Source: Macrostomum lignano
Lineage: Eukaryota
Assembly: GCA_002269645.1 (NCBI GenBank)
Contig: NIVC01001413.1
Location: forward strand, 124,001 to 188,000
Length of the DNA stretch: 64,000 nucleotides
Reading direction: 5' to 3'
The translations under genes were made by a program, and so were the position numbers. A model generated the notes under the pieces. The model was not told the origin of the DNA. It ran no database searches and was given only the letters and a program-made list of their open reading frames with translations. Positions 15,238 to 19,090 of the stretch are shown here, one piece after another. The stretch's first letter is position 1. The number at the start of each line of letters is the position of its first letter.

Positions 15238-16983
15238 ATCATATTTATACCAACAACATGAGTTTGTATTATATTTATATTATAGGGCCTAGCAACATAT
15301 TATACTAACTAACCTTAAGTATTAGGCCTATACTAACAAATGTTTGGCCTAAATAAGGCTAAGCATAACATAATCAAAATACTTTATATATTAGATAAGC
15401 ATAAAAAATATATATTAGAAACAGAGTTTCATTGCATTATTATTTACCTACAACAACTGTGTCTTCACTTAGAGTAGGTGCAGAAGCAGATGGCCCAGAC
15501 AAAAATACAATATTAGATGCTAGACCACTAAGGGCCTGGTCCTGATTATTTGCAACTTCAGGTTCAACTTGATCTTTGTCTATCTCTTGGGTAGTTTTGC
15601 AAGTTACAATCAAGTAAACAAAAAAAGCTATGGTTGTAATCCCAGGAGCAAACAAAAAAACTGGCATTCCCAACTTAATATAGTAGCCAGGCTAAGGCCT
15701 AGGCAATAATATTTTTATGTTCTTTAAGTTTAAATTCAAGGGCTAGTGTAGTAGGAAGAGCTTTGCAACAACAGATTTTTATCTAATTAATTTTAGTTAC
15801 GTTTTTGTATTCTAGGCCTTCGACTTATGCCAACTTTAAAGCTAAGCAAACATGCAATAAACCAAATAAAAAGCTAAACAAAAAGTCAAATAGAAAGTTA
15901 GGTAAACAGTAGGCCTAAATAGCAACGATTTTTTTTGCAGCTAGAAATCCGTGTCGATGTGCCTGACGGTAGAAATTAAATCAAGTTGGTTAGTAAAAAC
16001 TGTAGCAGCTACATTTAACAAATCTTTACGTATACATTAAAGAAACAGATTCTTCTGAATTAGAATTACATAAATGAATAACTCCGTACAATTTTAATTT
16101 AAGGAGCTCCCGAATCTAAACGAGTTGCAATAATTCAATTGCCAGAAATTCACACATTTGAAATCTTTTTCTATATCAATGTTCCTGCAACAATTCAGCA
16201 ACATTTTTATGTCAACGTTGATGCCAAGCGCGCGCTGTCAACAACGTCAATGTTGCAGCAACTAAAGATGGCACTAGGGGTTTTGGCTTGTGGCACACTT
16301 AAAAAACTTATGTATGCATCTGCTAATTTATATAAAGCAATTAAAGAACTCAAATTGTCAAAAAATTACTATAGCCAAAAAAGCCAAAACCAAATGTATG
16401 AGACTACAAAAACAATCTGCTATTTTTGTTATAATCTGTCTTTGATTCTTTTTCCTCCTATAGTAAACATAATTTAGCACATTAAAGTTGTTTCCTAACT
16501 AGGGACAACAAAGCTAACCTTTTGAAAAAGTAAAAACAAAGAGAATTTTCATCTCTAAATCTCAAGTATATCTGTTTAAAGTCTCTTCTTCCCTTTTACT
16601 TTAGGTGATATACAACTACTGTAAGCCTTCTTAGCTCTAAATTACTAAGTTGAAGGTAATTAATTATTTTTTTCTGTCCTAACCATTGCTTATTTTCTGC
16701 CACACTCAGGTCAGGCCCCTTTATTCATGGCCTTATCCTTAGTAAGGGCATCTGAAATGAACTGAGGCTTATAATCTCTATTTCAATTAAGCCCAAAGCC
16801 CAAGAAAAATTGTTCCTATGCCCTTTGTTTCCCCTTTATTTGTTATGTAGTAGGGCATCATTTTAGGAATGGGAATTAGTAGCGAAGCAGATATGCTTTT
16901 TGCCTACTGTCAGTAGTTAAGGTTTGGGAAAGTAATTAAAGCGGGGGAAAATCGCTAGTTTTTGGGATTCCTTAAAAGTATAG

Positions 16984-17760
16984 AGCAGTTGGGGCTCGGG
17001 AAAGCAAATTTTCTTCAAAGAGGCTGATCCGGATAATGTTAGCTATCTGGAGAGACGCTGGGCGGCACTTGTTGCCTCAATCAAGAGAGGCTACCCGCAG
17101 AGTCTGCCTGAGGCCTTAGGACTGGAGGCTGGAGTCTGCTTTGTTGATCAGGCGGCTATAATCAAGAGACTCACTGAGCGCTACGTCGACCCGCGACGTG
17201 TAGTGATGTCTCTGATTGAAGAGGTGAGAGGGCTCCCAGACTCGTCGGTAGTCTTGAGGACCCAGGTAGCTATGATCTACGCTTATCACGGTATGTCGAT
17301 GATCCGAATAACCCGAGACTTTGTGGACAACCCAGTCCAGCTCCCGTTCTGCGTGGTGTCTGTAGCGAGAGAGGCATTGGCCTTTCGGGATGCTTATCAG
17401 GCGGTGATTGATGGTGTGGCCCCCGAGGTCATCCCGTATCTGTTCGTTCTACGGGGTGACTTGCCTCGACTGCACCAGAGTATCTTCCCTAACCTGACTG
17501 CAGTCGTGCGGGCCGCCGCAGTGAAGAGAGGCCTGCTCAATGCCAACTTTGCGTCAAAGAGGCATTCAGGTATAACCCTGGACGCCGATGACATTGACCT
17601 TCTGACCGAAGTTGGGGAAGGAAAGAGCGGAGCCCTACAGAGAGAGTGTGTGACTCTCCTTTGCCGGCTTGGAGTGCCTGACGAGAACCTCCAGCGCATG
17701 GCTCAGGCCTACCACGAGGCCTACTCGGAGGAGCCTCGTCGCAAGAGGCGCGCTCTGTAG
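16984..17760 (+). CDS. Bornavirus/nyamivirus-like (Mononegavirales) nucleoprotein homolog, N-terminally incomplete, 259 open codons
   Basis: The frame is open from 16984 (the track starts it at 17203). YLERRWAALVASIKR ~ BDV N QIKKRFKTMMAALNR; QVAMIYAYHGMS ~ QIKLVASYAQMT; VAREALAF ~ VAYEIRDF; IPYLFVLR ~ FPFLGAIR; LHQSIFPNLTAVV ~ LAPRSFPNLASAA; GALQRECVTLLCRLGV ~ AELSGEISAIMRMIGV. The BDV sequence is recalled from memory. Confidence 0.75.
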   Translation, partial: SSWGSGKQIFFKEADPDNVSYLERRWAALVASIKRGYPQSLPEALGLEAGVCFVDQAAIIKRLTERYVDPRRVVMSLIEEVRGLPDSSVVLRTQVAMIYAYHGMSMIRITRDFVDNPVQLPFCVVSVAREALAFRDAYQAVIDGVAPEVIPYLFVLRGDLPRLHQSIFPNLTAVVRAAAVKRGLLNANFASKRHSGITLDADDIDLLTEVGEGKSGALQRECVTLLCRLGVPDENLQRMAQAYHEAYSEEPRRKRRAL

Positions 17761-18692
17761 GTCCAGCGGGCAGTGCCGAGTTAATCCCTGCAGCCTTGCA
17801 TTTGTTCTGTTCCCTCATTTGCTCTCCCAACCTTGTTTTTCGTTCCTTGTCTACCAACAACCAGCTCGGGTCCAATAGGTCAGTTTGATCTTTAGAAAAA
17901 AAAAATTGGTTTTGTCTCGCATAGAGGCGCCTAACCGCAGTACCCCTGTGAAACTTGTCTCTGCCTGGCTGAAAGCTTGTAATGAGTGAGTAGGCTGGGT
18001 TGGAGGGTAATAGTGGATCGGGTAGGGCTGTGGGTAGCTGTATAGGAAGGCAGGCCTATACCTGTTCCAGTTGGTGCTTTGACGGACTCCCTCAAGTGCC
18101 CTCTGAGCGAACAGCCAGCGACCCTATTAAAGCTGGAGTGTGCCAGAACCAGGACTGAGTCTGAGCAGGACGGGACCGTTGGCACGGTCATAATAGAAAT
18201 GGCGGGTTGGCAAAGCAAAGGGTGAAACAGTCCCGGCGATTAGCCCTCCTGCCGCTTCAAAGATAAGAGACTGTCTGGCAAGAGTACCCGGGGTTTAGTT
18301 GGGGGGGGGGGGAGGCTCCTCGGGGTTTGCCCTGAATGGTTCACTCAACCCCCTCTGGCCCCGGGGAGGTTTATGATTTGTACCCGGGGGTGGTGGGCGG
18401 TCGGCCCCAGCATGGTTGCCACGGCTCTAGGCCTTCGGGCCATCCCTAATAAGCAAGGGGTCTATCTAACCTGGTTTATGGGCACGGGCTCCTGACTGGT
18501 TCGTCGAACCGCTGTCACTGACCCCCGGGGAGGTTTGGTTTTTGTGTTATAGCCTATGTACAGTCCTTTCTAGTCTAACTAGGCTTTAGTGTACATAAGT
18601 ACACTCCCAATCTGGAACCTAAATATTGCTATAGTGGCGTAAGAGCCTACTCAATGGCTGAGGCGCCGGAAGCACTTATTTAGTTAGTTAGT

Positions 18693-19090
18693 TCGGGAAA
18701 GCAAATTTTCTTTCGTGCGTTCGTTCGCGGACTTGCAAAGTCTCAAATAGGAATAGGTAAGAGGCGGGGAAATATTGGGAAAGTTTAAAGTAAACCTGTC
18801 GGTGGTAGTCGATGCCTAAGACAGTACACTCCAGGTAGTCAATGCCTAAAACTCTCGCACAATAACCATTGCATGCTTTTCTACTCTGTTATTTTTTGAA
18901 GTATAAAACTTTTGTTAAATATTTGGTTTTTTTGAGTCAATCCTTTGTCTCTACAGTAATAGGACTAGGGAAGCAGGAAGCCTGGTGGCAGCGAAATCTA
19001 CCAAAATTTCAAACCAGTAAAAGTCCACTAGTAATAAATCCTTAGTAAATAGAAACCAGTAGCTTAACCGCGAGGTACACGGCGTGTCCA
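18693..19090 (+). repeat. 5' LTR, portion shared with the 3' LTR
   Basis: Near-identical to 26382-26779 (about ten substitutions, clustered in the 5' half). Ends ...GTGTCCA just before the PBS. Confidence 0.95.

Follow-up and report, generated by a model that had tools for sequence, protein, structure and literature searches.

A nyamivirus-like nucleoprotein fossil joined to a high-copy repeat inside one long terminal repeat of a gypsy element in the flatworm Macrostomum lignano

The window analysed here, a stretch of 64,000 nucleotides from the flatworm Macrostomum lignano (GenBank assembly GCA_002269645.1, contig NIVC01001413.1, positions 124,001 to 188,000), holds a Ty3/gypsy retrotransposon whose 5' long terminal repeat (LTR) carries a cargo of 1,677 bases that its 3' LTR lacks. 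Two parts make up this cargo, in the same orientation and within one LTR only: a 5'-truncated nyamivirus-like nucleoprotein gene closing with a gene-end signal and a run of A and, starting directly after that run, a full-length copy of a 787-bp high-copy host repeat. A single 20-bp duplication flanks the pair, and neither part alone is flanked by one. The order of the parts and all of their junctions are read from the assembled DNA itself. One duplication around viral part and repeat together best fits a single target-primed insertion with a template jump, and the high-copy repeat, together with the gene-end signal and poly(A) found where the two parts meet, points to an event of the non-LTR kind, as made by long interspersed nuclear elements (LINEs), and not to the gypsy reverse transcriptase. 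We regard it as probable that one LINE-type target-primed insertion entered the 5' LTR of a gypsy element that had integrated before, with a template jump from the repeat RNA to a viral mRNA.

Besides the window itself, 24 public sequencing runs were listed, 20 of which contain at least half of the words of the stretch, and four (X1, X3, X4 and X15, from four studies) were aligned to positions 16400 to 27200 at 88% likeness. The run data are assembled contigs from which rare variants have been dropped; they demonstrate presence and not absence, and their depth is a rough guide to copy number. X15 is the one clearly DNA-like run, while X1, X3 and X4 were taken as RNA by guess or inference. Contigs with zero differences cross the LTR/virus joint at 17016 in all four runs, the beginning of the LTR (16846) in X1 and X4, the repeat/duplication joint at 18692/3 in X3, and the left edge of the 3' LTR at 26340 in X1 (record 7) and X4 (record 27); no single contig of the four runs spans the whole element.

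The viral fossil

On the forward strand, positions 17016 to 17760 correspond to residues 103 to 349 of the nucleoprotein (N) of Macroli virus, the species Berhavirus macrostomi of the Nyamiviridae, which was itself found in M. lignano (PMC12282299). The frame stays open between 17017 and the stop codon (17758 to 17760), shares 191 of 247 residues (77%) with the Macroli virus protein, and has the same C-terminal end. Pfam BDV_P40 stays below the cut-off for this frame and exceeds it in three of five relatives, namely the three more distant ones; as a lone query the window protein matched no solved structure, and a profile of six sequences matched solved nucleoproteins (E 2e-6). On the strength of the BDV_P40 matches in the relatives and of the profile matches, we therefore identify the viral frame as N. 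The homology begins one base past the 20-bp duplication, and the first 102 residues of N are missing from the window altogether. Another N sequence of the Macroli kind, P0002, more complete than the window's, lies on a 112-kb contig of M. lignano; it is 62% identical to the window's protein and diverges at the C-terminus.

The stop codon is followed by 128 non-coding bases (17761 to 17888, forward strand), presumably the viral 3' untranslated region, which share contig and depth with the coding part. The gene-end signal that comes next (17889 to 17900, forward strand) agrees at 12 of 12 positions with the published termination/polyadenylation signal of nyaviruses (PMC6832935), is unique in the window (0.02 occurrences expected), and is extended by five extra A into an A10 run that ends at 17905 and is the sole run of at least ten A between 11 and 33 kb. 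The gene-end signal with its extra A therefore marks where a viral mRNA had its 3' end. The nucleus is the site of nyamivirus replication, and these viruses produce individual, putatively polyadenylated mRNAs (PMC10010136); the available text of PMC10645145 gives bornavirus signals only. The viral share of the cargo thus amounts to 890 of 1,677 bases, so the initial annotation, which had taken all 1.7 kb for viral, was right for these 890 bp and mistaken for 17906 to 18692, a separate 787-bp high-copy host repeat.

In X15 the viral part lies in one unbroken contig with zero differences (16904 to 17905) at a depth of 87.9, compared with 72.6 for the unique right flank, and no other X15 contig matches at 88% or more across 17122 to 17843; in this DNA run there is a single copy of the viral part. 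Judged by its N sequence and gene-end signal, both of which fit the genus Berhavirus (a genus placed by L-protein phylogeny, N alone of the viral genes being present here), the source was apparently a Berhavirus-like virus, a distinct relative of Macroli virus and not Macroli virus itself. A search for relatives of N among viral contigs yielded 19 pattern matches and no confirmed one. A metagenome scan yielded one 22-base match, taken as chance. The locus would be the record of a young germline infection by a second virus of the Berhavirus kind.

An in-frame stop lies upstream of the viral frame, the first in-frame ATG is at 17206, with no start codon ahead of residue 75 of the frame, and there is no sign of selection; in neutral trials the frame stays open in 64% of cases at 1.5% substitution. 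Most likely, the viral product is a passive fossil devoid of protein function. It had been proposed that a splice acceptor ending at 17020 might supply the missing N-terminus, with RNA junctions landing at 17021. The AG in question (17019 to 17020) falls within ordinary viral K-E codons whose residues are present in both relatives, and a splicing explanation is therefore not needed; none of the joints examined lands at 17021 (15 of the 18 joints, in contigs from which rare forms may have been dropped), and a weak search found no longer fused N protein.

The three RNA-like runs cover the viral part. All three also contain the joint 20616>24109, whose splice signals are canonical when read on the minus strand; it is absent from X15 and suggests antisense transcription of the window's element or of a near-identical copy. 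An antisense spliced transcript through gag-pol is likely, with a deletion at a 6-base microhomology as the rival origin of the joint, the contigs giving neither strand nor level. The contig bearing this joint has no differences from the window and yet lacks the miniature inverted-repeat transposable element (MITE)-like insert described below, so a near-identical copy or allele exists.

The host repeat, its target site and the gypsy element

The repeat (17906 to 18692, forward strand) reaches depths of 29,000 to 87,000 in X15 against 88 for the viral part, that is, about 330 to 990 times as much. Joints or loose ends at 17905 to 17907 and at 18693 lead to other flanks, showing two sharp repeat ends common to other loci, and the copy in the window is full length. 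It contains a variable internal repeat with a spacing of 164 bp and a 3' hairpin, folds as a whole better than 20 of 20 shuffles, and closes with a tail of TTAG repeats (18680 to 18692; 13 bases, period 4) that stops exactly at the duplication; such a 12-mer occurs at 4 positions in 22,000. Terminal inverted repeats, as expected of a DNA transposon or MITE, are absent from it. The 5' end shows no A or B box of RNA polymerase III (Pol III) and no tRNA, 5S, 7SL or small nuclear RNA (snRNA) head of the kind that defines a short interspersed nuclear element. ARAGORN found no tRNA in the repeat, Rfam assigned it to no family (one chance match, E 9.8), simple descriptors revealed neither a hammerhead core nor a ribozyme resembling that of hepatitis delta virus (HDV), and a six-frame Pfam search of 17906 to 18692 gave no match, marking it as non-coding. 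From this anatomy we infer a non-autonomous non-LTR retroposon. A second viral gene at 17906 to 18692 was considered and rejected, given the empty six-frame search and a depth of up to about 990 times that of the viral part. In X1 and X4, a loose end before 17905 shows an inverted copy of the first 11 bases of the repeat, 13 bases upstream (by eye, in a mixed consensus), which resembles a fold-back at the 5' junction.

The same stretch of LTR appears to have received the repeat more than once. Virus-free joints between repeat and LTR were found at 16970>17907 (X15, depth 339), where 20 of the 27 letters of the spacer match LTR positions 16971 to 16997 by eye, and at 16991>17907 (X1 and X15); a shortened repeat copy joins the LTR at 16985>18353 (X15), and a weak joint, 26437>17907, occurs in X1 (depth 4). 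Counting the window's own junction, at least four different repeat/LTR junctions fall within some 30 bases, where random insertion would give 0.0004 to 0.004, with copy numbers taken from depth and a genome size that we assume to be 500 Mb. The equivalent of 16985 to 17015 in the LTR family is likely an insertion hot spot, or the repeat a target-specific element. We keep this at likely because the sides of the joints are short (27 to 30 letters) and the 3' junctions unseen; the repeat is also found at non-LTR flanks.

The duplication itself is secure. The window contains two exact copies of its 20-mer and no more, at 16996 to 17015 (native LTR sequence, present once in the 3' LTR and in paralogs) and at 18693 to 18712 (bridged with zero differences by X3 record 16), both on the forward strand, and the match is not extendable; across 300 Markov simulations of the stretch the longest exact repeat was 16 (mean 10.5). 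At one position both copies read C and the 3' LTR reads A, as expected, albeit weakly, if the duplication postdates the integration of the element.

The LTR around it needed outside evidence. Its parts in the window, all on the forward strand, are a first block with a TG start (16846 to 16995), the interrupted middle, and a remainder with a CA end (18713 to 19090) that is 98% identical to the 3' LTR. The cargo-free 3' LTR (26340 to 26779, forward strand) aligns to 16954 to 17015 plus 18693 to 19090 with a single copy of the motif, at a Kimura two-parameter distance of 3.0% over 440 columns. The initial annotation had described it as the block before the motif joined to the block after, which is true of the latter and of the last 42 bases of the former (16954 to 16995), while 16846 to 16953 have no counterpart there. 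GTTA, moreover, is found 24 times from 13 to 19 kb, so that the LTR start could not be placed from the window by itself. A paralog contig in X15 (record 9) fixes this boundary independently: it runs through 26214 to 26340, then 493 other letters, then 16846 to 16994. The family LTR therefore starts at 16846, and the 4-bp GTTA target duplication (16842 to 16845 and 26780 to 26783, no strand assigned) is real, as first proposed; the alternative start at 18545 is rejected, this position lying inside the 787-bp repeat. The same contig implies that the window's copy has at its 3' end lost about 600 bp, namely 493 internal bases and the first 108 of the LTR, at a break with microhomology of at most a base or so. 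Joints 16969>18718, 26380>18712 and 26380>18718 represent empty paralog LTRs with one motif copy, and the family LTR is therefore about 548 bp long.

The body of the element is that of a Ty3/gypsy retrotransposon. With its TG...CA LTRs and 4-bp duplication it combines a candidate primer-binding site in a 10-mer two bases past the LTR (19093 to 19102, forward strand). Gag and a broken pol (19557 to 25465, forward strand) follow in the order gag, protease, reverse transcriptase, RNase H and integrase, the protease match lying below the cut-off and the gag search giving one match (49%). Pol is in pieces, the integrase is interrupted by a 358-bp MITE-like insert (24234 to 24591, no strand assigned) with a 9-bp duplication and inverted ends of about 15 bp, and, the 3' end being deleted at 26340, no intact 3' LTR start with a polypurine tract is found in this copy. 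The empty site of the insert (24233>24592) was seen in all four runs.

Several further observations concern the element and its surroundings. The primer-binding-site-like 10-mer recurs within the LTRs themselves (18983 to 18992 and 26672 to 26681), 110 bases upstream of the real one, and 5 of the 13 differences between the LTRs cluster within 20 bases (26399 to 26418), at the end of the duplicated motif and just beyond. Elsewhere the window contains a transposase-like frame of 640 amino acids (11346 to 13268, by eye), a reverse transcriptase remnant (32509 to 33036), a second broken LTR-type pol (52078 to 55694, by eye), and many minisatellite arrays.

Routes of insertion

On the sequence of events that we favour, the gypsy element, whose short LTRs of about 548 bp and 4-bp duplication are plain in the DNA, would have integrated first. 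A non-LTR retrotransposon protein may then have made a nick at 16995/16996 in the 5' LTR, used the TTAG tail of the repeat RNA for priming, copied all 787 bases to the 5' end of the repeat, and jumped to a viral N mRNA at its poly(A) end, the cell being an infected germline or stem cell. Copying of 890 bases would have stopped at codon 103, and joining 20 bases downstream of the first nick would have produced the one duplication around both parts; the loss of about 600 bp at the 3' end of the element, seen as structure, would be a separate event. Enzyme, jump and timing are here what we infer.

A number of points weigh against this reading. Neither the partner LINE with its enzyme nor a LINE 3' end matching the repeat was found within the window, and the class of the repeat is drawn from its anatomy, the Rfam, Pfam, tRNA and Pol III box searches all being empty. 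Its 3' hairpin is modest (z -2.2; 6 of 200 shuffles fold equally well), and its depth drops from the 5' to the 3' end, the opposite of a 5'-truncating LINE, for which subfamily divergence is a candidate cause that would explain the drop. The gene-end match is made to the published nyavirus signal and not to the nucleotide sequence of Macroli virus itself. Across the virus/repeat joint at 17905/6, the contigs of X1 and X3 reach by no more than 29 and 30 letters, slightly below our 31-letter rule. Finally, depth does not equal copy number, and with one clear DNA run and rare variants dropped, a source locus may be lost or polymorphic.

That last point bears on the best-placed rival, 5' transduction, in which a viral fossil sat upstream of a repeat copy elsewhere and a read-through transcript was retroposed here in 5'-truncated form. 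It would yield the same anatomy with one duplication, and P0002 indicates that Macroli-like fossils form repeatedly in this genome. Against it, no second copy and no pre-existing genomic source of the fusion was found at 88% or more in X15 (its contigs showing presence, not absence), the contig is unbroken across 17016, and the repeat would have had to land exactly behind the poly(A), leaving no duplication at that joint. We hold this route to be improbable.

Somewhat less credit goes to two successive insertions, of the repeat first, with the 20-bp duplication, and later of a viral cDNA patched between the duplication and the repeat 5' end. Virus-free repeats at the same LTR site in other copies (16970>17907 and 16991>17907) speak in its favour, but the LTR copies of those examples are diverged and joined at other positions, the viral part bears no second duplication or deletion, and the viral insert would have had to strike one exact base; we therefore think it quite unlikely.

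In LTR elements, strand transfer during reverse transcription normally makes both LTRs alike. This tells against a third route, in which the gypsy reverse transcriptase switched template to viral RNA during cDNA synthesis and left one asymmetric LTR, since it would normally give two like LTRs; it also leaves a full-length, unrelated, tailed repeat and a perfect 20-bp duplication unexplained. Viral fossils do often lie near gypsy elements, a route of this kind has been proposed (PMC5497376), and a recombinant of an intracisternal A particle (IAP) with lymphocytic choriomeningitis virus (LCMV) provides a precedent (PMC3205384), but we consider it very unlikely here. Of the second of two models offered in the initial annotation, a viral cDNA inserted into the 5' LTR, the variant with a 20-bp target duplication is supported.

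Its first model, a native gene-bearing LTR of 2.2 kb in which recombination between the 20-bp repeats shortened the 3' copy and splicing completed N, is scarcely credible. The other deletion in the 3' LTR does show that losses occur in this copy, and the viral frame is open, but the viral part is single copy, the paralog LTRs are empty with one motif, openness is what most of the neutral trials give, the acceptor lies inside conserved viral codons, and the weak search for a fused protein found none. A captured gene borne by the family would be expected in several family copies; the cargo is not a gene carried by the gypsy LTR family. Misassembly of a viral contaminant plus repeats, which the redundancy described for an assembly of the species (PMC12801592) and the lack of one contig over the whole element might favour, is unlikely to the point of being negligible, the LTR/virus joint being crossed with zero differences in four of four runs from four studies, one of them clearly DNA-like, and the remaining joints each in one or two runs.

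Comparison with known systems

No virus-retroposon template-jump chimera and no report of this locus was found in the open-licence literature, most subscription papers lying outside that scope, and the available passages of PMC9241645 and PMC12801592 do not mention it. What is new here is a combination, each of its two kinds being already known. The first is the endogenous bornavirus-like N element (EBLN), for which copies of bornavirus mRNA with poly(A) and duplications are described (PMC3205384). Like EBLNs and experimental insertions of Borna disease virus mRNA (PMC3205384, PMC6115245), the locus holds a copy of a mononegavirus N mRNA, with poly(A), target duplication and a related N fold. 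Homology to a viral gene and a gene-end signal with poly(A) are both found, as in EBLNs; the poly(A), however, does not adjoin the duplication, a 787-bp host repeat intervening, and virus, host and target are a nyamivirus, a flatworm and a gypsy LTR. With regard to Macroli virus (PMC12282299), the likeness of 77% extends over the C-terminal 247 of 349 residues only.

The second kind is the retroposon chimera. In vivo, R2 makes jumps to snRNA and tRNA that start at its 5' end (PMC3414825), and the fungal chimeras MINE and WEIRD-MgSINE carry repeats of 10 to 20 bp (PMC2104539). Our locus resembles R2-snU12/tRNA, MINE and WEIRD-MgSINE in having a retroposon as its 3' part, another RNA as its 5' part, one orientation and one 10-20-bp duplication, and, as in R2 (PMC3414825), the jump would leave from the complete 5' end of the element. 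It differs from the R2 and MINE chimeras in that what was captured is a viral mRNA, entered at its poly(A) end and 5'-truncated, instead of a host non-coding RNA, and in that the carrier is an unclassified non-autonomous repeat. The repeat in turn shares with the R2 and R2/R1 SIDEs (PMC3414825) a short non-coding body in which no Pol III head was found, a structured 3' end and the reuse of a multicopy target; unlike those SIDEs, it shows no HDV-like ribozyme by simple descriptor and also occurs at non-LTR flanks.

Virus sequence embedded in an LTR retrotransposon is likewise known from Aedes integrations (PMC5497376) and from the IAP-LCMV recombinants (PMC3205384), and for viral fossils that lie next to or within gypsy elements the gypsy reverse transcriptase is often held responsible (PMC5497376). 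Here, in contrast, a locus with all of its junctions preserved points to a different enzyme, of non-LTR type, with the LTR element as target and not as catalyst. The thought may even be entertained that a non-LTR system with one site in this gypsy LTR family as its target carries the repeat as a passenger and, by jumps onto viral mRNAs, brings virus sequence into transposon copies read in antisense. We hold this to be a long shot; if true, RNA-virus sequence would have a targeted way into the loci of Piwi-interacting RNA (piRNA) with which a flatworm silences its transposons. The locus in any case reveals an unclassified high-copy repeat that seems to favour one LTR site, and it appears to be a rare complete record of its route, with gene-end signal, poly(A), full-length carrier, tail and one duplication. 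It would also offer a means by which enzymes of LINE type, recognising no RNA ends but their own, could capture a viral mRNA.

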